DNA from: Escherichia phage 308Ecol101PP | Sequence record: OR062945.1 | DNA length: 64,000 nt | Reading direction: 5' to 3' (one strand) | Shown here: piece after piece, positions 4,264 through 61,585 of the stretch | How the letters are laid out: each line of letters opens with the position of its first letter | Numbering within the stretch: position 1 is the stretch's first letter | Program-made: the position numbers and the translations under genes | Notes under the pieces: generated by a model | What the model saw: the letters and a program-made list of their open reading frames with translations, nothing else | What the model was told of the DNA's origin: nothing | Databases searched by the model: none

Positions 4264-4950
4264 ATGAAACTGTCTAAAGATACTATCGCTATTCTGAAAA
4301 ACTTTGCCTCTATTAACTCCGGCATTCTGCTGAGTCAAGGTAAATTTATTATGACTCGTGCAGTTAATGGCACCACTTATGCGGAAGCAAATATCTCTGA
4401 TGAAATTGATTTTGACGTAGCACTTTATGATTTGAATAGCTTCTTAAGCATTTTGAGTCTAGTGTCTGATGATGCTGAAATTTCGATGCACACCGATGGC
4501 AATATTAAAATTGCAGATACACGTTCCACGGTTTATTGGCCTGCCGCTGACAAGAGCACCATTGTTTTTCCTAATAAGCCAATTCAATTCCCAGTGGCTT
4601 CTGTGATTACTGAAATTAAAGCCGAAGACCTTCAACAATTGCTTCGAGTTTCACGTGGTCTTCAGATTGATACAATTGCTATTACAAATAAAGATGGTAA
4701 AATTGTTATCAACGGCTATAATAAAGTTGAAGATTCTGGACTAACTCGTCCTAAGTATTCTTTGACTCTTACCGATTATGATGGTTCTAACAATTTTAAC
4801 TTCGTAATCAATATGGCTAATATGAAAATCCAGCCAGGTAACTATAAAGTAATGTTGTGGGGAGCTGGTGATAAAGTTGCAGCCAAGTTTGAAAGCTCTC
4901 AAGTAAGTTATGTTATTGCGATGGAAGCCGATTCTACTCACGACTTCTAA
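4264..4950 (+). CDS. 45: gp45 sliding clamp
   Basis: 228 aa from ATG 4264 (ORF track starts at upstream TTG 4249); MKLSKDTIAILKNF... and C-terminal ...EADSTHDF match T4 gp45 as recalled. Confidence 0.95.
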   Translation: MKLSKDTIAILKNFASINSGILLSQGKFIMTRAVNGTTYAEANISDEIDFDVALYDLNSFLSILSLVSDDAEISMHTDGNIKIADTRSTVYWPAADKSTIVFPNKPIQFPVASVITEIKAEDLQQLLRVSRGLQIDTIAITNKDGKIVINGYNKVEDSGLTRPKYSLTLTDYDGSNNFNFVINMANMKIQPGNYKVMLWGAGDKVAAKFESSQVSYVIAMEADSTHDF

Positions 4951-7005: not shown

Positions 7006-9717
7006 ATGAAAGAATTTTACTTAACGGTTGAACAGATTGGTGATTCAATTTTTGAACGTTACATCGATTCTAACGGCCGTGAACGTACTCGTGAAGTAGA
7101 ATATAAACCATCACTGTTTGCTCATTGTCCAGAAAGTCAGGCTACGAAATATTTCGATATCTACGGTAAGCCGTGTACTCGTAAGTTGTTCGCCAATATG
7201 CGTGATGCCTCCCAATGGATTAAACGCATGGAAGATATCGGACTTGAAGCACTTGGCATGGATGATTTCAAATTGGCGTATTTGTCTGACACTTATAACT
7301 ATGAAATCAAATACGACCATACAAAAATTCGTGTGGCTAACTTCGACATCGAAGTAACATCTCCGGACGGGTTCCCTGAGCCGTCACAAGCAAAACATCC
7401 GATTGATGCTATCACTCATTATGACTCAATTGATGACAGGTTTTATGTATTTGACCTTTTGAATTCTCCATATGGTAATGTAGAAGAATGGTCTATTGAA
7501 ATCGCTGCTAAGCTTCAAGAACAAGGCGGTGATGAAGTTCCATCTGAAATTATCGATAAAATCATTTATATGCCGTTCGATAACGAAAAAGAATTGTTGA
7601 TGGAATATCTCAACTTCTGGCAACAGAAAACTCCTGTCATTTTGACTGGATGGAACGTTGAGTCATTTGATATTCCATATGTGTATAACCGAATCAAGAA
7701 TATTTTTGGCGAATCTACTGCGAAACGTTTATCACCACATCGTAAAACTCGTGTTAAAGTTATCGAAAACATGTATGGTTCTCGTGAAATCATTACATTG
7801 TTCGGTATCTCTGTTCTTGATTACATTGACCTTTACAAAAAATTCTCTTTTACCAATCAACCATCATATTCTCTGGATTACATTTCAGAATTTGAATTGA
7901 ACGTTGGTAAACTGAAATATGACGGCCCTATTTCTAAGCTTCGTGAAAGCAATCACCAACGATATATTTCTTATAACATTATCGACGTGTATCGTGTATT
8001 GCAAATTGATGCTAAACGTCAGTTCATCAACTTGAGTTTGGACATGGGTTATTATGCTAAGATACAGATTCAATCTGTGTTTAGCCCAATTAAAACATGG
8101 GATGCTATTATTTTTAATAGCCTTAAAGAGCAGAACAAGGTGATTCCACAAGGTCGTTCTCACCCGGTTCAACCTTATCCCGGCGCTTTTGTTAAGGAAC
8201 CTATTCCAAATCGATACAAATATGTAATGAGTTTCGACCTTACATCTCTGTATCCAAGTATTATTCGCCAAGTGAATATTAGCCCAGAAACAATAGCAGG
8301 AACGTTTAAAGTAGCTCCACTACATGATTATATTAACGCAATCGCTGAACGTCCTTCTGATGTGTACAGTTGTTCTCCTAACGGCATGATGTATTATAAA
8401 GACCGTGACGGTGTTGTTCCAACTGAAATCACTAAAGTCTTTAATCAACGTAAAGAACATAAAGGTTACATGCTTGCAGCTCAACGTAATGGCGAAATAA
8501 TTAAAGAGGCATTGCATAATCCTAATCTTTCTGTTGACGAACCATTAGATGTTGATTATCGTTTCGACTTCAGTGATGAGATTAAAGAAAAGATTAAAAA
8601 GTTGTCTGCTAAATCTCTTAATGAAATGTTGTTTAGAGCTCAACGTACTGAAGTTGCAGGTATGACTGCCCAAATTAACCGTAAATTGCTTATCAACTCA
8701 CTTTATGGTGCACTTGGCAACGTTTGGTTCCGTTATTATGATTTGCGTAATGCTACTGCAATCACAACATTCGGGCAAATGGCTTTACAGTGGATTGAAC
8801 GTAAAGTTAATGAATATCTGAATGAAGTTTGTGGCACAGAAGGTGAAGCTTTCGTTCTTTATGGTGATACAGACTCTATTTACGTATCTGCTGATAAAAT
8901 TATCGATAAGGTTGGTGAATCTAAATTCCGTGATACCAACCATTGGGTAGACTTCTTAGATAAGTTTGCACGTGAACGTATGGAACCAGCTATTGATAGA
9001 GGTTTCCGTGAAATGTGTGAATACATGAACAATAAACAACACTTAATGTTCATGGACCGAGAAGCTATCGCTGGGCCTCCACTCGGTTCTAAAGGTATTG
9101 GTGGATTCTGGACTGGTAAGAAACGTTATGCATTAAACGTGTGGGATATGGAAGGAACCAGATACGCTGAGCCTAAACTCAAAATCATGGGTCTAGAGAC
9201 TCAGAAATCTTCGACTCCTAAAGCAGTACAGAAAGCTCTTAAAGAATGTATTCGTCGTATGCTTCAAGAAGGTGAAGAATCATTACAAGAATATTTTAAA
9301 GAGTTTGAAAAAGAATTCCGTCAATTGAATTATATTAGCATCGCGTCGGTATCTTCTGCGAATAACATTGCTAAATATGATGTAGGTGGATTCCCTGGTC
9401 CTAAATGCCCGTTCCATATTCGTGGAATTCTGACGTATAACCGGGCTATCAAAGGTAATATCGATGCACCGCAAGTTGTAGAAGGTGAAAAAGTATATGT
9501 TCTGCCTTTACGTGAAGGAAACCCATTCGGTGATAAATGTATCGCATGGCCTTCTGGTACTGAAATCACAGATTTAATTAAAGACGATGTACTTCATTGG
9601 ATGGACTACACTGTTCTCCTTGAGAAGACATTTATTAAACCACTTGAAGGATTCACATCAGCAGCGAAACTCGATTACGAGAAGAAAGCATCTCTGTTCG
9701 ATATGTTCGATTTTTGA
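7006..9717 (+). CDS. 43: gp43 DNA polymerase (family B) with 3-prime to 5-prime exonuclease
   Basis: 903 aa; exo motifs FDIEV, YNIIDV; pol motifs SLYPSII, YGDTDS, KxxxNSxYG; sequence matches RB69 gp43 as I recall it. Confidence 0.98.
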   Translation: MKEFYLTVEQIGDSIFERYIDSNGRERTREVEYKPSLFAHCPESQATKYFDIYGKPCTRKLFANMRDASQWIKRMEDIGLEALGMDDFKLAYLSDTYNYEIKYDHTKIRVANFDIEVTSPDGFPEPSQAKHPIDAITHYDSIDDRFYVFDLLNSPYGNVEEWSIEIAAKLQEQGGDEVPSEIIDKIIYMPFDNEKELLMEYLNFWQQKTPVILTGWNVESFDIPYVYNRIKNIFGESTAKRLSPHRKTRVKVIENMYGSREIITLFGISVLDYIDLYKKFSFTNQPSYSLDYISEFELNVGKLKYDGPISKLRESNHQRYISYNIIDVYRVLQIDAKRQFINLSLDMGYYAKIQIQSVFSPIKTWDAIIFNSLKEQNKVIPQGRSHPVQPYPGAFVKEPIPNRYKYVMSFDLTSLYPSIIRQVNISPETIAGTFKVAPLHDYINAIAERPSDVYSCSPNGMMYYKDRDGVVPTEITKVFNQRKEHKGYMLAAQRNGEIIKEALHNPNLSVDEPLDVDYRFDFSDEIKEKIKKLSAKSLNEMLFRAQRTEVAGMTAQINRKLLINSLYGALGNVWFRYYDLRNATAITTFGQMALQWIERKVNEYLNEVCGTEGEAFVLYGDTDSIYVSADKIIDKVGESKFRDTNHWVDFLDKFARERMEPAIDRGFREMCEYMNNKQHLMFMDREAIAGPPLGSKGIGGFWTGKKRYALNVWDMEGTRYAEPKLKIMGLETQKSSTPKAVQKALKECIRRMLQEGEESLQEYFKEFEKEFRQLNYISIASVSSANNIAKYDVGGFPGPKCPFHIRGILTYNRAIKGNIDAPQVVEGEKVYVLPLREGNPFGDKCIAWPSGTEITDLIKDDVLHWMDYTVLLEKTFIKPLEGFTSAAKLDYEKKASLFDMFDF

Positions 9718-23081: not shown

Positions 23082-24104
23082 ATGGCTGAATGGATAGATA
23101 ATGAATTTGCTTATCGTGCGTTTTCTCACCTACCTCGTTTTAGACAAATCAATAATTCAAGCACATTTAAATTAACATTTCGTTGTCCAGTTTGTGGCGA
23201 CTCCCAGACAGATGCAATGAAAGCTCGTGGATGGTATTATGGCGGTACTCCTGGTAATGTACATTGCTATAATTGTCAATACCACAATACAATTTCCGGA
23301 TACTTAAAAGAATATGACGAAGAGCTTTATCGCGAATATCTAATGGAAGTTCGTAAAGAAAAAGCTAGAATGGAACCAAAGATTGAAAAGGTTCCTGAAG
23401 CTAAGCCGGAGCCAGAGAAAAAGACTATAAATTCTTTACCGTCTTGTTCTCGTCTGGACAAGCTGCCTGAAGAGCATCCTATTGTGAAATATGTTAAGTC
23501 TCGATGCATTCCTAAAGAATCATGGAACAGATTATGGTTCACATTAGAATGGCCTAAATTGGTCAACAAGATTCAACCTGGTACGTATAAGAAAGAGATT
23601 CCCGAACCACGTTTAGTGATTCCTATTTTTAATAAAGATGGGAAGGCCGAGTCATTCCAAGGGCGTGCACTTCGTAAAGATGCTCCTCAGAAATATATCA
23701 CTATTAAAGCGTTTGAGTCTGCAACAAAAATTTATGGTGTTGAACGTGTTAAGGAAGGAGACGTCTGGGTAATGGAAGGCCCTATTGATAGTTTATTCAT
23801 ACCCAATGCAATCGCTATTACAGGCGGCTCAATAGATTTAGATGTGGTACCATTTAAAGAACGTCGGGTATGGGTAATGGATAATGAACCTAGGCATCCG
23901 GATACTATAGCTCGCATGAAGCGATTAGTTGATGCAGGCGAACGTGTCATGTTCTGGGACCGAGCTCCATGGAGATCAAAGGATGTGAATGATATGGTAA
24001 TGAAAGAAAATGCAACACCACAAGAAATTTTAGAATATATGAAACAGAATATTTCAAGTGGGTTGCATGCTAAAATGAGATTATCTCGTTATTCGAAGAT
24101 TTAA
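23082..24104 (+). CDS. 61: gp61 DNA primase
   Basis: 340 aa; N-terminal zinc ribbon CPVCGD...CYNC, TOPRIM-type central region; T4 gene order and size. Confidence 0.85.
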   Translation: MAEWIDNEFAYRAFSHLPRFRQINNSSTFKLTFRCPVCGDSQTDAMKARGWYYGGTPGNVHCYNCQYHNTISGYLKEYDEELYREYLMEVRKEKARMEPKIEKVPEAKPEPEKKTINSLPSCSRLDKLPEEHPIVKYVKSRCIPKESWNRLWFTLEWPKLVNKIQPGTYKKEIPEPRLVIPIFNKDGKAESFQGRALRKDAPQKYITIKAFESATKIYGVERVKEGDVWVMEGPIDSLFIPNAIAITGGSIDLDVVPFKERRVWVMDNEPRHPDTIARMKRLVDAGERVMFWDRAPWRSKDVNDMVMKENATPQEILEYMKQNISSGLHAKMRLSRYSKI

Positions 24105-24298
24105 ACAAGCCCTATAATAGCAAAGGCCAAATCAACTACAGTATCCAATGGAACAGAAGGAACTATAATACCATTAGCAACTAACAATGGTGCAATCCCG
24201 AAGTTCCATGAAATAATGCCACCTACAACTATTGCGGCGATAGCAGTTTTCTTTTTATTGCCTTTAATAGCGTTTATTAACGATGGAAGTTTAAACAT
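24101..24298 (-). CDS. small membrane protein (65 aa) encoded antisense to the early gene direction
   Basis: Minus-strand ATG preceded by AAGGAG at 6-nt spacing; highly hydrophobic (AIAAIVVGGIISWNFGIAPLLVANGIIVP). Confidence 0.5.
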   Translation of the reverse strand: MFKLPSLINAIKGNKKKTAIAAIVVGGIISWNFGIAPLLVANGIIVPSVPLDTVVDLAFAIIGLV

Positions 24299-24386: not shown

Positions 24387-24908
24387 ATGGCACACTTTAA
24401 CGAATGTTCACAACTTATTTCTGGTGTTGATAAAGCAGAAGAAGCTTATTTTAATGCTCTGATTCACGAAGATAAAGACCCACTTCAGGTAATGCTTGAT
24501 ATGCAGAAATCTTTACAGGTTCGTTTGGCAAATGACAAGCCTGAACATAACAAACATCCTGATGAATTGGCCACTGCAGGCGACGTTGTTGATTGGCTGC
24601 GTAATCAGAAAGATTATATTGATGATGAATTCCGTGAACTGCTGACTTCACTTGGTGGTATGAGCAATGGTGAAAAAGCCGCCAGCAGTGTATGGAAGCC
24701 GTGGAAAGCACAACATGCTGAATATCGTAATCGTCGTATCGATGAACTGTCTCCTGAAGACCAGCTTGAAATTAAATTTGAGATGATTGATATTCTGCAC
24801 TTCGTTCTGAACATGTTCCAAGGTCTGGGTCTTTCTGCTGAAGAAATCTTTAAACTGTATTATCTGAAGAATGCTGAAAACTTTGCTCGTCAAGACCGAG
24901 GTTATTAA
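24387..24908 (+). CDS. 56: gp56 dCTPase/dCTP pyrophosphatase (MazG-like)
   Basis: 173 aa from ATG 24387 (ORF track starts earlier at 24372); MAHFNEC..., DEFRELLTSLG, IDILHFVLNMF, C-terminal KNAENFARQDRGY match T4 gp56 as recalled. Confidence 0.85.
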   Translation: MAHFNECSQLISGVDKAEEAYFNALIHEDKDPLQVMLDMQKSLQVRLANDKPEHNKHPDELATAGDVVDWLRNQKDYIDDEFRELLTSLGGMSNGEKAASSVWKPWKAQHAEYRNRRIDELSPEDQLEIKFEMIDILHFVLNMFQGLGLSAEEIFKLYYLKNAENFARQDRGY

Positions 24909-25081
24909 TGGCTCGTTTAAATAAACGTCAGCTTAAGAAAGCTCATAAGAAACGTATTGACCAACTATTTAAAAATGATAACAGTGAGCTTATTTGTAAG
25001 CTCCTGTCTAATCAGCTTCAGCATGTTAGTCAATTATCAGACCATCTACATATGGTTGATTGGGTTGCAAATGAAACTTGA
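24908..25081 (+). CDS. small hypothetical protein (57 aa)
   Basis: TAATG-coupled to gene 56 stop; below ORF-track cutoff. Confidence 0.3.
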   Translation: MARLNKRQLKKAHKKRIDQLFKNDNSELICKLLSNQLQHVSQLSDHLHMVDWVANET

Positions 25082-25295
25082 TTTTTATGCATGGCAAAAA
25101 GCCGGGAGACCGGCTAATAAAGCATTCGGCTCTGATGGATATAATACTAGACTCCACTGGAAATTTAATACTCCAGATGATTATTCTCCGGTAATAATTA
25201 ACGGTGATGTTGTTATATTAGCTAAATTCGGATATTTTATTGTCCCGAAGAAATTCATTATAAATACACCTGTAATTAAACAACAAAGGAGTTAA
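25071..25295 (+). CDS. small hypothetical protein (74 aa)
   Basis: ATG 25071; ORF track alternative begins at 24957; weak SD. Confidence 0.3.
   Translation: MKLDFYAWQKAGRPANKAFGSDGYNTRLHWKFNTPDDYSPVIINGDVVILAKFGYFIVPKKFIINTPVIKQQRS
25259..25266 (+). promoter_or_regulatory. late promoter TATAAATA upstream of soc
   Basis: Exact TATAAATA 32 nt upstream of the soc ATG. Confidence 0.6.
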
Positions 25296-25297
25296 TT

Positions 25298-25534
25298 ATG
25301 GGTGGTTATGTAAACATCAAAACCTTTACGCATCCTGCTGGTGAAGGTAAAGAAGTTAAAGGTATGGAAGTTTCTGTGCCGTTTGAGATTTATTCAAACG
25401 AACATCGGATTGCAGATTCTCATTACCAAATCTTTCCATCAGAAAAGGCAGCTTATTCTACTGTAGTTTCTGATGCAGCTGACTGGAAAACTAAGAACGC
25501 TGCAATGTTTACCCCTACACCAGTAAGTGGTTAA
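25298..25534 (+). CDS. soc: Soc small outer capsid protein
   Basis: 78 aa; YVNIKTF..., AHYQ/SHYQ, FPSEKAAYSTV match T4 Soc as recalled; late promoter upstream, terminator downstream. Confidence 0.8.
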   Translation: MGGYVNIKTFTHPAGEGKEVKGMEVSVPFEIYSNEHRIADSHYQIFPSEKAAYSTVVSDAADWKTKNAAMFTPTPVSG

Positions 25535-25543
25535 ATAATTTAA

Positions 25544-25570
25544 GGAATCCTTCGGGGTTCCTTTTTTTTT
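25544..25570 (+). terminator. intrinsic terminator, UUCG hairpin plus T9
   Basis: GGAATCC-TTCG-GGGTTCC followed by TTTTTTTTT. Confidence 0.8.
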
Positions 25571-25579
25571 GTTTCTACA

Positions 25580-25609
25580 GTTTACAAACACTAAAAACTG
25601 TGTTAAGAT
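25580..25609 (+). promoter_or_regulatory. putative early promoter
   Basis: GTTTAC with TAAGAT about 18 nt downstream. Confidence 0.4.
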
Positions 25610-25637
25610 ATTCTTACTTACTCAAGAGGAGAATAAT

Positions 25638-25865
25638 ATGTTAAATCGTTGGATTAAACCTAATAACACATTAGGTGCTTTGATTGCTCAAGAAGTTTCG
25701 TTGAAATACGGTCTTGGATATTACGATGATGTAGTCGTACACTCATTCATGATGGATGGTGAAGACGTCAAATTTAATGCCGAAATCCGTTGGGATGATG
25801 GTGGTGTTCGTTTTGTTCGAGGAACAATTAATGCTTACGATACTGAAGAAGTTGTTTGCTGTTAA
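25638..25865 (+). CDS. hypothetical protein (75 aa)
   Basis: ATG 25638 after CAAGAGGAGAA; ORF track begins at 25569. Confidence 0.45.
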   Translation: MLNRWIKPNNTLGALIAQEVSLKYGLGYYDDVVVHSFMMDGEDVKFNAEIRWDDGGVRFVRGTINAYDTEEVVCC

Positions 25866-25879
25866 ACCAGGCGAAGGTA

Positions 25880-26067
25880 TGATGCCTATTCCTGATACAC
25901 ACGAAAAAAGTTGGGAATACATTGGTGACGGCATGATGGAAGAAGTTATTCGTCCTAAGTCTGCTTCAAACTCTTCAAGTTATAATCATTCATACGTATC
26001 GTCTTGGCCCGGTGATTCTGGGTCAAGTTATTCTGATTGTGGTTCAAGCTCAGGGAGCTGCGAATGA
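25880..26067 (+). CDS. hypothetical protein (62 aa), Ser/Gly-rich C-terminus
   Basis: ATG 25880 after GAAGG; ORF track begins at 25756. Confidence 0.3.
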
Positions 26068-26243
26068 ACAAGATAGTTAAATGGTTTAAAAGCTGGGACG
26101 ATGGTGTCGGTCCAGAAGATTGGCTGGATGTTCTTGAAGAGAATATGGCTAAAGAATTCCAGAAACATGAAGAAAAGCTCGTCGAAGATGAAGGCGAACG
26201 TATTGTAAAACTTTATATGGGTGAACCATCGAGGAAATTATAA
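26064..26243 (+). CDS. hypothetical protein (59 aa)
   Basis: ATGA-coupled start; ORF track begins at 26037. Confidence 0.35.
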   Translation: MNKIVKWFKSWDDGVGPEDWLDVLEENMAKEFQKHEEKLVEDEGERIVKLYMGEPSRKL

Positions 26244-26707
26244 TGGATGCTATGCTATTTAAAATGTATTTGCTTGAAGCCAAGTCATTTAAACATATAC
26301 CAGTGGAAGATAAGACTCCACTAGAAATAGCTATTCTAATTAACAAAAGTCTAAATAATCCGCAATATATCGTAGAAGAATTCTGCAAATTGCAGATTCC
26401 TAAAGGTTACAAAATTCGTGTAGAGCGAGTTGGAGCTATTACTCGTTCTAAAAATTCTCCGTTTAGTCTTGAAGAAGGCATAAAGGACTTAGGTTATGAA
26501 TCTACGGAAAATGCCGTTTATGTGAATCCTGAAAAGCGTTTAGACCTGTTTGAAAAGCGAGACCATAAGTATTTTGCCAAAAAATACTTTATTACATCAT
26601 TAGCAGATTTAATCCATTTGCAACGAGCTATTTGGAAATTTTTTAAGACAAAAGGTGTAGCACTAGAAACATTCTCTGAACCGGCTAGTTTTTATCTAGG
26701 TGAATAA
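26243..26707 (+). CDS. hypothetical protein (154 aa)
   Basis: TAATG-coupled start. Confidence 0.5.
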   Translation: MDAMLFKMYLLEAKSFKHIPVEDKTPLEIAILINKSLNNPQYIVEEFCKLQIPKGYKIRVERVGAITRSKNSPFSLEEGIKDLGYESTENAVYVNPEKRLDLFEKRDHKYFAKKYFITSLADLIHLQRAIWKFFKTKGVALETFSEPASFYLGE

Positions 26708-26708
26708 T

Positions 26709-26888
26709 ATGGACCTTATGAGTATGTTTGACGAGCCTGAAGTTGAGGCTCCTAAAGTGCATCGTAGTGAACTTATTGATGAACTAGATAGTATTATACA
26801 ACGACACGGCTTTAGTTTACCTGTTGAAGCCCTGAAAGACCTTGCATCTTATTATGACGACCCTCCACCATGGAGTCCTTGGAAATGA
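26709..26888 (+). CDS. hypothetical protein (59 aa)
   Basis: ATG 26709 after TAGGTGA; ORF track begins at GTG 26700. Confidence 0.4.
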   Translation: MDLMSMFDEPEVEAPKVHRSELIDELDSIIQRHGFSLPVEALKDLASYYDDPPPWSPWK

Positions 26889-27049
26889 AAGAGAAATTGA
26901 AAGAGAAATTCTTACTAGAAATCAAGGAAAAAGACTTTGAGACATGGTATCGAATGGTGAAAGGGCTGACATTGCTTTTTAAAGCATCGTTATTCATGTT
27001 AGAACAACCTGGTCCTGATGGGCCTTTAGTAGGAAAGCTTAAAAAGTAG
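26885..27049 (+). CDS. small hypothetical protein (54 aa)
   Basis: ATGA-coupled; contains direct 12-nt repeat GAAAGAGAAATT x2 at start. Confidence 0.3.
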   Translation: MKEKLKEKFLLEIKEKDFETWYRMVKGLTLLFKASLFMLEQPGPDGPLVGKLKK

Positions 27050-27077
27050 TTTACATTCCCTCCTCTCGTGTTATGAT
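27049..27077 (+). promoter_or_regulatory. early promoter
   Basis: GTTTAC, 17-nt spacer, TATGAT, AGGCTTATC. Confidence 0.5.
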
Positions 27078-27104: not shown

Positions 27105-27686
27105 ATGACATGTCAATCTGAACTTCAAGAACGTGAATACCTAACAAATCTGATTGATAGCAAATTCACCCGCCAAGAACAAAACATTCTCTGGGCTTGC
27201 ACCGATTCTAAGGAAGACCCAGATTTCCACTATGAATTAGACCATCTTGTTCGTAAGCATATGACTTCTACAGTACCAGTAGAACTCTACCGTGGTGTAA
27301 CTCCAGAAGAAGTAGAACGTCTTTCCCTTCTTTCTGTGGGATGCCATTGGTCTCCTGGACGAGTAACATCGTTCACAACTGATTTCAGTACAGCTCGTCA
27401 ATTCTCCGGGAGATGGGAATATCAGACGTACACTATTCTTAGTCTCAGGAATGCTCCGTTCATTTTTGATTACTACCAAAACATGGTTAACATTGTACTC
27501 GCCGGAAAGAACCCTAAGCATGTTATGGAAGAAACTCGTATCGATGTCCTAGATATGATTGAATCTGAGCAAGAGTACATGGTCTCAGGTATCTCTAGAT
27601 TTGAGATTGTGGAAATTGAAGACTTAGAATATGACCCTTTATCTCGGTTATACAAAATCATTCATTTGAAAATGTTGAATTTTTAG
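27105..27686 (+). CDS. ADP-ribosyltransferase, ModA/ModB-like (R-S-E class), paralogue 1
   Basis: 193 aa; LYRG (Arg), SFT (S-x-S), EYMV (Glu) ; paralogous to next gene; T4 modA/modB position upstream of dda. Confidence 0.6.
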   Translation: MTCQSELQEREYLTNLIDSKFTRQEQNILWACTDSKEDPDFHYELDHLVRKHMTSTVPVELYRGVTPEEVERLSLLSVGCHWSPGRVTSFTTDFSTARQFSGRWEYQTYTILSLRNAPFIFDYYQNMVNIVLAGKNPKHVMEETRIDVLDMIESEQEYMVSGISRFEIVEIEDLEYDPLSRLYKIIHLKMLNF

Positions 27687-27743: not shown

Positions 27744-28352
27744 ATGTTTATGCCGTATAACGAGTGTGAAATTGAAGAAATGGTTCGTCGTGCTCAAAAC
27801 CCCGAATATCAAGATGTATTGCAGTACGAAATTGATAGTCAATTCAGCGATAATGAACAAAGCGTCCTTTGGCAGTGTATGGAAAACAAGCCAGACTGTA
27901 TTCAACAGGAGTTAAGTTCAATCGTTCGTAGAAATTGGACGTCTTCTGTTCCTGAGACAATGTATCGTGGAATCTCTAAGAAAACTATGGCCACACTCGA
28001 TGATAAAGGCATTGGTAGTATTATTAAATTTGACAGAGTAATGAGCTTCAGCCCAGTGTTCGGTGTAGCGCGTAACTTTGCTTCGTATAATTTTTACGGA
28101 ACATTTAATATGTTCTGCATCAAAGATGCACCATTTGCTTTCAACTTCCGTGAACATATGCTTAATATGATTCTGGCTGCACCATCTTGTGAGTTCAATG
28201 GAGCTTTCCCTGAAGCGACAAGACGGTCTAATGCTAGACTTATATCTGACGAATGTGAATTTATGCTCCCTATAGGGACTACACTGCGTGTAGATTCTAT
28301 TATTCAAGATGGACGTTATACAATCTGGAATCTGTCTATTGTCAGTTACTGA
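27744..28352 (+). CDS. ADP-ribosyltransferase, ModA/ModB-like (R-S-E class), paralogue 2
   Basis: 202 aa; MYRG, SFS, ECEFM motifs; shares N-terminal block (Q..VLW.C...K.D) with paralogue 1. Confidence 0.6.
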   Translation: MFMPYNECEIEEMVRRAQNPEYQDVLQYEIDSQFSDNEQSVLWQCMENKPDCIQQELSSIVRRNWTSSVPETMYRGISKKTMATLDDKGIGSIIKFDRVMSFSPVFGVARNFASYNFYGTFNMFCIKDAPFAFNFREHMLNMILAAPSCEFNGAFPEATRRSNARLISDECEFMLPIGTTLRVDSIIQDGRYTIWNLSIVSY

Positions 28353-58399: not shown

Positions 58400-59317
58400 A
58401 TGGATTTAGAAATGATGTTGGATGAAGATTACAAAGAAGGTATTGCACTTGCCGACTTTAGTAACATTGCATTGGCAGCCGCATTAAACAACTTTGAAGA
58501 TGGCGATAAAATTACTGTTCCGATGGTTCGCCATGTAATCTTGAATTCAATTCGTAAAAACGTAGTGATGTTCCGTAAGCAAGGCTATACAAAATTTGTA
58601 TTGTGTATGGATAATGCTACTTCAGGTTATTGGCGTCGTGACTTTGCTTACTATTACAAGAAAAATCGTAAAACCGATCGTGAAGCTTCAAAGTGGGATT
58701 GGGAAGGATATTTTACTGCACTCCGTCAAGTTGTTGATGAGATTAAGAAATACATGCCGTACGTTGTAATGGATATTGACAAGTATGAAGCAGATGACCA
58801 TATCGGTGTATTAACTAAATATTTGTCATTAGCTGGACATAAGGTATGTATTGTTGCATCAGATGGTGACTTTACACAATTACACAAATATCCTAACGTT
58901 AAACAGTGGTCGCCACCACAGAAAAAATGGGTTAAAATTAAGAACGGTTCTGCTGAAATTGATTGCATGACTAAAATTCTTAAAGGTGACCGTAAAGACG
59001 GCGTTGCATCTGTTCGAGTTCGTGGCGACTTCTGGTTTACCAGAGTTGATGGTGAACGAACTCCGAGCATGAAAACAACGATTATTGAAGCAATTGCCAA
59101 TGACCGTTCTCAAGCTGAAGTATTATTAAGTGCGGAAGAATATAAACGGTATCAAGAAAATTTGGTTCTTATTGATTTTGATTATATCCCTGATAATATT
59201 GCTTCAACCATTATAGAGTATTATAACTCATATAAACCACAACCTAAAGGCAAGATTTATTCATACTTTGTAAAATCTGGTCTTTCTAAATTAACAAGTG
59301 TAATTAATGAATTCTGA
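58400..59317 (+). CDS. rnh: RNase H (5-prime to 3-prime exonuclease / FEN-like)
   Basis: 305 aa; acidic active-site blocks (VLCMDN, KYEADDHIG, VASDGDF); T4 position adjacent to gene 34. Confidence 0.85.
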   Translation: MDLEMMLDEDYKEGIALADFSNIALAAALNNFEDGDKITVPMVRHVILNSIRKNVVMFRKQGYTKFVLCMDNATSGYWRRDFAYYYKKNRKTDREASKWDWEGYFTALRQVVDEIKKYMPYVVMDIDKYEADDHIGVLTKYLSLAGHKVCIVASDGDFTQLHKYPNVKQWSPPQKKWVKIKNGSAEIDCMTKILKGDRKDGVASVRVRGDFWFTRVDGERTPSMKTTIIEAIANDRSQAEVLLSAEEYKRYQENLVLIDFDYIPDNIASTIIEYYNSYKPQPKGKIYSYFVKSGLSKLTSVINEF

Positions 59318-59594: not shown

Positions 59595-59910
59595 TATTAA
59601 ACCGGTTGATGAGACCGGTTTATCTGAACAAGAATTAGCAGTAAAACACGATAAAGATGATATCGCTAAATTGCTTGACCGACAAGAAAATGGATTCATT
59701 ATCGAATCCATGGTTGAACAATTTGGTATGTCTTATTTAGAAGCAACAACTGCTTTCTTGGAAGAAAATTCTATTCCAGAAACACAATTTGCTAAATTTA
59801 TTCCTACAGGAATTGTTGAAAAAATTACAAGCGAAGCAATTGACGAAAATATGCTTCGCCCATCAGTTGCTCGTGGTGAAAAAACTAATACGTTAGATTT
59901 CTTATTATGA
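59572..59910 (+). CDS. 33: gp33 late transcription co-activator
   Basis: 112 aa; acidic, C-terminal ...TNTLDFLL hydrophobic tail; position upstream of gene 59. Confidence 0.75.
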   Translation: MTQFSLSDIKPVDETGLSEQELAVKHDKDDIAKLLDRQENGFIIESMVEQFGMSYLEATTAFLEENSIPETQFAKFIPTGIVEKITSEAIDENMLRPSVARGEKTNTLDFLL

Positions 59911-60682: not shown

Positions 60683-61585
60683 ATGTTTAAACGTAAATCT
60701 ACTGCTGACCTCGCTGCTCAAATGGCTAAACTGAATGGTAACAAAGGTTTCTCTTCAGAAGATAAAGGCGAATGGAAGCTGAAGCTAGATGCATCCGGTA
60801 ATGGTCAAGCGGTAATTCGTTTCTTGCCAGCAAAAACTGATGATGCACTACCATTTGCAATTCTTGTTAACCACGGTTTCAAGAAAAATGGTAAATGGTA
60901 TATTGAAAATTGCTCTTCTACACATGGTGATTACGACTCTTGTCCTGTATGTCAGTACATTAGTAAAAATGACCTGTACAATACCAACAAAGCTGAATAT
61001 TCTCAACTGAAACGTAAAACTTCTTATTGGGCTAATATTCTGGTTGTTAAAGACCCTCAAGCTCCAGATAACGAAGGTAAAGTATTTAAATATCGTTTCG
61101 GTAAAAAGATTTGGGACAAAATCAATGCAATGATTGCAGTTGATACCGAAATGGGTGAAACTCCAGTTGATGTTACTTGTCCGTTTGAAGGTGCTAACTT
61201 CGTTCTGAAAGCTAAGCAGGTTTCTGGTTTTAGCAACTATGACGAATCTAAATTCTTGGGTCAATCTGAAATTCCTCGTATTAATGATGAAGCATTCCAG
61301 AAAGAACTATATGACCAGATGGTAGACCTTACCACTTTGACGGCTAAAGACCAGTTCAAATCCTTTGAAAAATTAAATGAATCTTTCGCTAAGGTTCTTG
61401 GTACTGCCGCTCTTGGTGGTGCAGCAGCCGCAGCAGCTTCTGTTGCAGATAAAGTTGCTTCTGACCTTGACGATTTTGATAAAGACATGGAAGCCTTTAG
61501 TTCTGCAAAAACTGAAGATGACTTCATGAGCTCTACCTCATCCTCTGATGATGGTGACCTCGATGACCTGTTAGCCGGTCTATAA
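60683..61585 (+). CDS. 32: gp32 single-stranded DNA-binding protein
   Basis: 300 aa; zinc-binding H...C...C...C, acidic Ser/Asp-rich C-terminus ([18 protein letters not shown]). Confidence 0.95.

Follow-up and report, generated by a model that had tools for sequence, protein, structure and literature searches.

An RB69-type counterpart of the T4 mrh/modA.x early gene cluster and a candidate sliding-clamp ligand among its products

Between soc and the ADP-ribosyltransferase genes modB and modA, phage T4 carries seven small, coupled early genes in the order mrh.2-mrh.1-mrh-srh-modA.4-modA.3-modA.2 (NC_000866, 13198-15232), which have had their names since the 1990s. T4 Mrh modulates late gene expression in hosts with a mutated rpoH gene, which encodes sigma-32, and this effect on sigma-32 and late transcription is the sole published phenotype for any orthologue of the genes considered here. 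T4 Srh (phrog_2441) is a postulated sigma-32 decoy. In the literature searched, we found no paper on the function of mrh.1, mrh.2, modA.2, modA.3 or modA.4. Here we describe the corresponding region in a stretch of 64,000 nucleotides (nt) from Escherichia phage 308Ecol101PP (OR062945.1), referred to as the window, in which six short open reading frames (ORF1 to ORF6) occupy the slot between soc and a pair of ADP-ribosyltransferase genes. These ORFs almost certainly constitute the mrh/modA.x early cluster of T-even phages and are non-essential. The cluster as such is already known, and in RB69 and about 150 relatives its products are entered as hypothetical proteins. Our overall reading, which we consider fairly probable, is that of an RB69-type soc-modB accessory operon that acts via the transcription and replication machinery, with ORF5 docking on the sliding clamp.

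The gene order around the six ORFs is that of T4. On the plus strand, the genes for primase gp61, dCTPase gp56 and soc are followed by the six ORFs, a modB-like and a modA-like gene, srd, dda.1 and dda, which corresponds to the T4 order 61-56-soc-...-modB-modA-srd-dda in the direction of early transcription (Table 1). At the DNA level, Escherichia phage moskry is 98% identical over 2 kb, and about 150 further phages, including Shf125875 and JS09, are 96-98% identical. Since these matches are accompanied by a match of ORF6 to RB69ORF020c of RB69, we assign the source of the window to the RB69-type T-even phages of the genus Mosigvirus.

A first-pass annotation, made from the DNA letters alone, had described six small coupled ORFs of 54-154 amino acids (aa) that follow the soc terminator behind an early promoter, and this layout was reproduced in our analysis. 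Coupling can be read from the sequence, as the ORF2/ORF3 and ORF5/ORF6 junctions are ATGA overlaps, ORF3 and ORF4 meet in TAATG, ORF4 and ORF5 are spaced by 1 nt and ORF1 overlaps ORF2 by 35 nt when ORF2 is read from 25831. The terminator after soc is real and strong, with a hairpin at 25542-25563 that has a 9-bp stem, a folding free energy of -13.5 kcal/mol and a z-score of -4.45, was equalled by none of 200 shuffled sequences, and is followed by a T run. A sigma-70 site of the T4 early type was also found ahead of the ORFs, and a second promoter-like site lies between ORF6 and the modB-like gene. As a class, however, such sites are not enriched in the window (12 found versus 12.2 expected in shuffled sequences), so that both promoter calls rest on position and sequence form and not on statistics.

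All six ORFs matched PHROG families, with E-values from 1e-17 to 1e-49. Compared with phage Mizar, whose DNA is 97.5% identical, they carry 25 synonymous and 10 non-synonymous differences, which are small numbers. The corresponding pN/pS ratios (non-synonymous over synonymous) were 0.00-0.15 in five ORFs and 0.52 for ORF1, the latter on three differences. By this sequence comparison the ORFs are shown to be under purifying selection, and the substitution pattern, together with the matches to phage protein families, marks them as genes rather than chance frames. The initial impression that the ORFs lack recognisable motifs thus had to be given up, because ORF4 belongs to PF24070 (T4_MRH), ORF2 to PF23836 (DUF7206) and all six have PHROG matches.

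By profile and pairwise similarity, five of the ORFs belong to named families of T4 genes. With alignment to T4 and Dhakavirus proteins set as the test of identity, ORF1, ORF2, ORF4, ORF5 and ORF6 aligned, and the T4 genes homologous to these five lie in the T4 soc-modB interval. Slot, strand logic and the presence of small coupled early ORFs are hence shared with T4, whereas protein identities are only 28-55% and the gene content differs. T4 has seven genes versus six in the window and two Mrh-family genes (mrh and modA.3) versus one. The ModA.4-like gene of the window lies behind modA.2, but in T4 modA.4 is found ahead of modA.3, the Mrh paralogue. The srh slot of the cluster is filled in the window by an ORFan without significant similarity to Srh.

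Outside Mosigvirus, the closest arrangement is found in Dhakavirus (Bp7 and VR5), with the order mrh.2-mrh.1-srh-modA.4-modA.3-modA.2. There, too, the cluster opens with mrh.2 and mrh.1 and has just one Mrh-family gene, with modA.2 directly behind it, and identities to Bp7 reach 76% for ORF1 and 58% for ORF5. In Dhakavirus, however, mrh.1 is separated from the Mrh-family gene by srh and modA.4, whereas the window has ORF3 in the place of srh and its ModA.4-like gene downstream of modA.2. Kanagawavirus phages show a lipase gene, a 62-aa ORF, an mrh.1-like gene, an Mrh-like gene, modA.2 and a 75-aa ORF, and in Jiaodavirus modA.2 directly precedes an ADP-ribosyltransferase gene. The core that recurs across genera is an Mrh-family gene with modA.2 at once behind it, upstream of an ADP-ribosyltransferase gene, as seen in T4, Bp7, VR5 and IME523.

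Searches with tblastn against 50,697 phage records (E ≤1e-3) returned 741 records for ORF1, 252 for ORF2, 153 for ORF3, 423 for ORF4, 966 for ORF5 and 153 for ORF6; the ORF2 alignments cover the N-terminal half only, because the tail of this protein is of low complexity. ORF4 was present at ≥95% identity in 153 records. The most widely held gene, ORF5, reaches into phages of Klebsiella, Enterobacter, Serratia, Erwinia and Kosakonia. Of the 154 Mosigvirus records that have the primase gene at ≥90% identity, about 153 contain the whole cluster (taken as ≥80% of the 2-kb region). The comparison of presence and absence among relatives, which had been suggested as a check at the outset, hence shows a cluster that is fixed within Mosigvirus and varies in content between genera.

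ORF1 is an mrh.2 orthologue that is 55% identical to T4 Mrh.2, and in T4, Bp7, VR5 and the window alike this gene is the first after soc. ORF2 was first called as a frame of 62 aa at 25879-26067, which matched phrog_2031 at positions 18-92 only (E 1.7e-17). Read from 25831, it is preceded by an AGGA Shine-Dalgarno sequence 7 nt upstream and matches phrog_2031 over its full length (1-92 of 92), and its N-terminus, MLTILKKLFAVKPGEG, is collinear with MIQWLKNLFKITPGEG of Bp7; Mrh.1 of VR5 aligns as well. Because of the ribosome-binding sequence, the full-length family match and the collinear Bp7 N-terminus, the true start of ORF2 most probably is 25831 and not 25879. PF23836 scores ORF2 at 52 bits, versus a cut-off of 25.6, and the protein is about 40% identical to Mrh.1 of Bp7 and VR5. 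ORF2 and T4 Mrh.1 have in common the pattern ...PGEG..PI...GDGMMEEVIR and a Ser/Cys-rich C-terminus that ends in ...SGSC[DE]; the N-terminal ...PGEG..PI... segment and the Ser/Cys-rich end also occur in Mrh.1 of Bp7, VR5 and IME523.

This C-terminus (...W[PT]GDS..YS..GSC.SSSGSC[DE]) is kept in at least four genera, those of T4, Bp7, VR5 and IME523 among them, and might be a metal binding or modification site. The middle part of the Mrh.1/DUF7206 proteins is highly variable in length, with total lengths of 78-122 aa. In the Ser/Gly-rich part of ORF2, we also noted a G+C-rich hairpin with a 10-bp stem and a weak T-containing tail (26003-26037). As a terminator (hairpin at 26003-26027) it was rejected, since it lies inside coding sequence and lacks a proper T run; it probably is incidental, although a role in RNA processing or pausing is conceivable.

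ORF3 is the one member of the cluster that has no named T4 family. It was found exclusively in Mosigvirus-type phages, and its family comprises just seven clusters at 90% identity among 5.8 billion proteins, all of them at least 71% identical. The divergent copy of ESCO47 (71% identity) has the same frame and length. ORF3 directly follows mrh.1 and thus occupies the srh position of Bp7 and VR5. It also resembles Srh in size (59 aa versus 66-67 aa in Bp7 and VR5), in its acidic helical composition and in a W-x-K-x-W and [DG]W[LV][DE] pattern near the N-terminus. Nevertheless, ORF3 did not match phrog_2441 even at E-values up to 10. A hidden Markov model of Srh scored it at 4.6 bits, and 217 of 5000 shuffled sequences did as well (shuffle p about 0.04-0.055), and hhalign gave a probability of 11.7% (P 0.0026). 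As there was no family match and both the shuffle test and hhalign were weak, we did not adopt the identification as Srh, and we refer to ORF3 as an srh-position ORFan.

ORF6 resembles T4 ModA.4. The two proteins are 37% identical (ModA.4 family phrog_2681/phrog_5790), T4 ModA.4 cross-matches phrog_5790, the family of ORF6, at 2.5e-8, and the C-terminus PDGPLVGKLKK of ORF6 contains a motif, PDGPL[VA]GK[LR]K, that is shared with T4 ModA.4.

ORF4 is the Mrh-family protein of the cluster, with a PF24070 score of 130.2 bits versus a cut-off of 24.4 (E 7e-38, model positions 1-142 of 144), and its identity is 28% to T4 Mrh and 22% to ModA.3, the paralogue of Mrh. The AlphaFold2 (AF2) model of ORF4, built from a 47-sequence alignment with about five distinct subfamilies, has low confidence (predicted local distance difference test, pLDDT, 59.8). 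With this model, Foldseek found no neighbour in the PDB (best E 0.17, template modelling (TM) score <0.3). A search of BFVD returned only models of the Mrh/ModA.3 family, from phages of Citrobacter, Yersinia, Enterobacter and Klebsiella, at TM scores of 0.6-0.7 and E-values of 1e-7 to 1e-9. As modelled, ORF4 has an alpha/beta fold that is specific to its family.

Sequence searches of the PDB with ORF4 and with a ModA.2 profile gave no meaningful matches. A word-index homologue search with ORF4 alone returned near-identical proteins only, and a search with an alignment as query showed no T4-mrh-type members among the 120 matches listed. Recombinant T4 Mrh was reported to form a very large oligomer, and a cryo-EM structure was mentioned as data not shown; no T4 Mrh structure was present in the PDB copy searched, and it apparently is undeposited.

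ORF5 belongs to the ModA.2 family, with identities of 36-58% to ModA.2 of T4, Bp7, IME523 and TU02 (36% for T4, 58% for Dhakavirus and Kanagawavirus). It begins with MDLMSMFDE and ends with DPPPWSPWK, and in between lie a linker that is variable and a core of two helices. In an alignment of at least five genera, the family is conserved at both ends, with a nearly invariant M-D-L-[FM]-x-M-[FLM] head and an invariant DPPPWxPW tail, while the linker varies in length and sequence and is followed by a short helical core. The AF2 model agrees with this layout, as residues 1-18 have low confidence (pLDDT about 53 over residues 1-20) and a confident two-helix hairpin follows at 19-50 (core pLDDT 82-88). 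A relation to NikR and other ribbon-helix-helix proteins was considered but rejected (E 0.04, 14 bits versus a cut-off of 175), and the modelled hairpin has no preceding strand.

The head of ModA.2 resembles the peptides by which T4-type replication and transcription proteins bind the sliding clamp gp45. According to a review, RNase H's N-terminal peptide is a gp45-interacting PIP motif, and its removal abolishes the clamp interaction. The tail of DNA polymerase gp43 holds a PIP box, and the RB69 peptide has been co-crystallised with RB69 gp45, where it occupies a hydrophobic pocket (Tyr39, Ile107, Phe109, Trp199, Val217; 1B8H). In gp55, gp33 and gp43, short hydrophobic-acidic termini serve as clamp epitopes; these can be swapped freely for one another, and the linkers that carry them diverge. 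The window encodes the clamp itself and the clamp-binding termini of gp43, RNase H and gp33 (Table 1). Between ORF5 (MDLMSMFDEP) and the RNase H of the window (MDLEMMLDED), 7 of the first 10 residues are shared. Tails of gp43 read SLFDMFDF in the window, IME523 and Kc304 and TLFDMFDF in Bp7, and ModA.2 heads read MDLFDMF in Bp7 and VR5 and MDLFDML in IME523 and Kc304; LFDMF is thus common to the Dhakavirus ModA.2 head and to Bp7's own gp43 tail.

A strict clamp pattern, for which only the three established ligands (gp43, gp33, RNase H) were used, occurs four times in the six-frame ORFs of the window (51,196 residues), versus 0.34 expected. All four occurrences are at protein termini, namely those of gp43, gp33 and RNase H and the acidic tail of a presumed gp32. 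The latter is a 300-aa ORF (60683-61585) that we take to be gp32 by its size and position only, with the pattern at 61556-61585, 3 residues from the end; in form, its acidic tail is similar to the clamp epitopes. When the pattern was relaxed, the N-terminus of ORF5 was the only addition. Like the motifs of RNase H, gp43, gp33, gp55 and the LDFLF loop of DNA ligase, the candidate motif of ORF5 is short and hydrophobic-acidic, and it likewise is terminal and sits on a variable, probably flexible linker. Unlike these ligands, ORF5 has 59 aa without an enzymatic or sigma-like domain, its binding is predicted, and nothing comparable is known for DPPPWxPW, the other element conserved in it. Docking of ORF5 on gp45 may thus be put forward as possible, though on balance it is not the expected outcome. 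It is somewhat more doubtful that the ModA.2 family, held by about 1000 Tevenvirinae genomes, represents an unrecognised early gp45 ligand with a PIP-like motif like that of RNase H and a conserved DPPPWxPW tail on display, through which the cluster would regulate clamp-dependent late transcription or replication instead of being an anti-defence island. We did not find the clamp-motif reading in the literature searched, and we present it as a hypothesis only.

Several points weigh against these assumptions. Docking of ModA.2 on gp45 is proposed from sequence likeness, and the motif is just 6-7 residues long. The copy in the window (DLMSMF, residues 2-7) fits only the relaxed pattern, which was widened after ORF5 had been seen; homologues of Dhakavirus, Kanagawavirus and Winklervirus (DLFDMF, DLFDML) fit the strict one, and the window copy is the least canonical of the family. 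Heads of ModA.2 and tails of gp43 do not co-vary, as the T4 tail is SLDFLFG and the T4 ModA.2 head MDLFEML, and the comparison across genera is uninformative or mildly negative. Conservation of the N-terminus could also serve another partner or translation initiation. In the conditional fitness tables used, the T4 orthologues showed no effect, which speaks against a strong role under laboratory conditions, a clamp role included. On the side of ORF4, the poor model has no informative structural neighbour, and the link between Mrh and late transcription comes from old genetics on T4 mrh, from which it would have to be carried over to a protein of 28% identity.

Two observations on database entries concern the same protein families. 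In Kosakonia phage Kc304 (MZ348424, locus 2501-2692), the annotation lets the ModA.2 homologue begin with MLVIPDP, but the frame extends upstream to an ATG that gives MDLFDMLVIPDP and restores the family N-terminus, so that the deposited start probably lies 8 codons too late. In GenBank and UniProt, many homologues of ORF4 and ORF5 are labelled 'molybdenum ABC transporter, periplasmic molybdenum-binding protein'. This label appears to be a propagated mix-up of T4 modA.2/modA.3 with bacterial ModA, and the sequences give no support to it.

Table 1. Positions of the cluster, its neighbours and the clamp-related features in the window
Feature	Position	Strand	Remarks
gp45 sliding clamp	4264..4950	+	RB69 clamp structures 1B77/1B8H, E 5.9e-147
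gp43 clamp-binding C-terminal tail	9685..9714	+	KKASLFDMFDF
primase gp61	23082-24104	+	
soc	25298-25534	+	
intrinsic terminator after soc	25542..25572	+	stem, UUCG loop, T run
early-type sigma-70 promoter-like site	25581..25609	+	TTTACA-17-TAAGAT, TG upstream (extended)
ORF1, 75 aa, mrh.2 orthologue	25638..25865	+	phrog_1873, E 3.3e-30
ORF2, 78 aa, mrh.1 orthologue (DUF7206)	25831..26067	+	phrog_2031, E 1.3e-26
ORF3, 59 aa, acidic ORFan	26064..26243	+	phrog_10443, E 1.2e-43
ORF4, 154 aa, Mrh family (T4_MRH)	26243..26707	+	PF24070; phrog_1234, E 5.2e-49
ORF5, 59 aa, ModA.2 family	26709..26888	+	phrog_1647, E 1.7e-26
ORF6, 54 aa, ModA.4-like	26885..27049	+	phrog_5790, E 1.2e-22
second early-type promoter-like site	27050..27077	+	TTTACA-16-TATGAT, upstream TG, 10/12 matches
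modB-like ADP-ribosyltransferase	27105-27686	+	phrog_832, E ~1e-37; 34% identity to T4 ModB
modA-like ADP-ribosyltransferase	27744-28352	+	phrog_832, E ~1e-37; 29-31% identity to T4 ModA
RNase H N-terminal clamp-interaction motif	58400..58429	+	MDLEMMLDED; first 15 residues = T4 RNase H (1TFR/2IHN)
gp33 clamp-binding C-terminal tail	59887..59907	+	...TNTLDFLL

The genes for Mrh.2, Mrh.1, a small acidic protein, the Mrh-family protein, ModA.2 and the ModA.4-like protein form a single translationally coupled early operon, which would be read from the early-type promoter behind the soc terminator and probably runs on into modB, modA and srd. We infer that the products are not enzymes but small proteins that serve the transcription and replication machinery as adaptors or modulators and that would act alongside their host-takeover neighbours ModB, ModA and Srd. 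An adaptor function would fit their build from conserved terminal motifs and variable middles, seen in the Ser/Cys-rich tail of Mrh.1, the MDLF head and PPPW tail of ModA.2 and the PDGPLVGK tail of ModA.4. ORF5 might dock on gp45 through its putatively disordered, hydrophobic-acidic MDLMSMFDE, as do RNase H, gp43, gp33 and gp55, and its helical core and DPPPWxPW tail could recruit a second partner there or, alternatively, compete with the clients of the clamp. In this way, ORF5 might tune clamp-dependent late transcription, the process that is affected by Mrh. Mrh genetics and the clamp-motif lead together make the transcription and replication theme the best-supported function. Whether the cluster acts mainly on this machinery rather than on defence systems is, in our judgement, a nearly even question, with the balance slightly on the negative side.

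Defence systems come into question because the first-pass annotation had pointed out that comparable positions of T-even genomes hold accessory genes which laboratory growth does not require and which often counteract host defences. For the T4 orthologues, dispensability is borne out. In the transposon study HIDEN-SEQ, mrh, mrh.1, mrh.2, srh, modA.2, modA.3 and modA.4 were non-essential, with every insertion site hit, as were soc, srd, modA and modB; Cas9 targeting of T4 mrh.2 gave viable deletions of 35-526 bp, and the classical T4 39-56 deletions span the mrh/modA.x region. The second half of the claim fared differently. If each of the six products were an anti-defence factor against one host immunity system, kept because natural hosts carry such systems, this would suit ORFs that are small, early and non-essential, lie in a plastic region beside host-takeover genes, vary in content between genera and include the genus-restricted ORF3. 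Other small early genes of T-even phages have been proved to act in this manner, e.g., nrdC.1 against Septu, and a ModA orthologue has been linked to Mokosh. The known anti-defence proteins (IPI-III, nrdC.1, Alt and ModA in the Mokosh context) are likewise early, small, non-essential in K-12 and located in plastic regions, but they have a defined defence partner and a signal of conditional essentiality. The cluster orthologues show neither in the HIDEN-SEQ conditional data used, i.e., one T4 table and two Bas37 tables, where the T4 and Bas37 orthologues had log2 fold changes of about -0.5 to +0.4 and adjusted p values of 1.0. They are also absent from the anti-defence genes reported there, which are Alt, the glucosyltransferase bas37_0154, nrdC.1, bas37_0203, bas37_0260 and the ModA orthologue. 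In the literature searched, no paper links a cluster gene to a defence system or reports a defence-linked phenotype for an orthologue, and PADLOC (defence systems) and NCBIfam gave nothing relevant on the six ORFs. Published defence screens cover few hosts and systems and have no Mosigvirus among their phages. The cluster is fixed within its genus and under purifying selection instead of being variably present, and its only known phenotype concerns sigma-32 and late transcription. Because the T4 orthologues are non-essential and have no conditional phenotype in these tables, we retain the term dispensable accessory genes but not that of anti-defence genes, a function that we consider unlikely.

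With regard to ORF5, the N-terminal motif might be directed at the host instead, at DnaN, the beta clamp of E. coli, or at a different host protein, and aid the shut-off of host replication, in which case the likeness to gp45 ligands would be convergent or incidental. The consensus of bacterial beta-clamp ligands is QL[SD]LF. Its end is resembled by the DLF core of ModA.2, the protein is made early, at the time of host shut-off, and the motif does not follow the change of the gp43 tail in T4. However, the leading Gln of the consensus is absent, the closest matches are phage gp45 ligands (7 of 10 residues with RNase H, and LFDMF in the Bp7 gp43 tail), and ModA.2 proteins are limited to Tevenvirinae, phages that encode clamps of the gp45 type. 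A host target is hence quite improbable. Less probable by far, and practically negligible, is that some of the ORFs are chance frames in AT-rich DNA, for which ORF3, ORF6 or the short form of ORF2 would be the prime candidates. At tblastn sensitivity ORF3 and ORF6 are indeed limited to Mosigvirus, and the few clusters of ORF3 worldwide would suit a spurious frame. Yet both have PHROG families, that of ORF6 being recognised by T4 ModA.4, the start/stop overlaps are precise, the differences to Mizar are 6 synonymous and 1 non-synonymous in ORF6 and 1 and 0 in ORF3, and ESCO47 keeps frame and length of ORF3.

Some further features were noted near the cluster and in its relatives. Neither dam nor segF, both of which T4 has between gene 61 and soc, is present in this interval of the window. 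Between the primase and gp56 genes, the minus strand contains a 65-aa ORF (24101-24298), for which the Mizar annotation gives one transmembrane segment. A 57-aa ORF is coupled to the end of gp56 and is followed by about 215 nt without annotation before soc (region 24908-25295). In Enterobacter phage IME523 (Kanagawavirus), a gene of 504 aa annotated as GDSL lipase (826-2340) directly follows soc, ahead of the mrh-type cluster. Its first about 45 residues resemble the N-terminal part of Soc (MKYINLKLRSGIEVSVYFTVYSNAHKIAGSFY), which suggests that the protein is a Soc-like N-terminal module fused to another domain.

For the T-even phages, the analysis yields an orthology map between the RB69-type and the T4-type cluster and a revised start of ORF2. 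It also advises caution against calling ORF3 Srh and flags the widespread molybdenum-transporter mis-annotation of ModA.2 and ModA.3 homologues. If the clamp hypothesis were true, ModA.2, the most widely conserved gene product of the cluster, would be a new client in the T4 clamp 'tool-belt' and would provide a first molecular handle on the long-unexplained effect of Mrh on late transcription.

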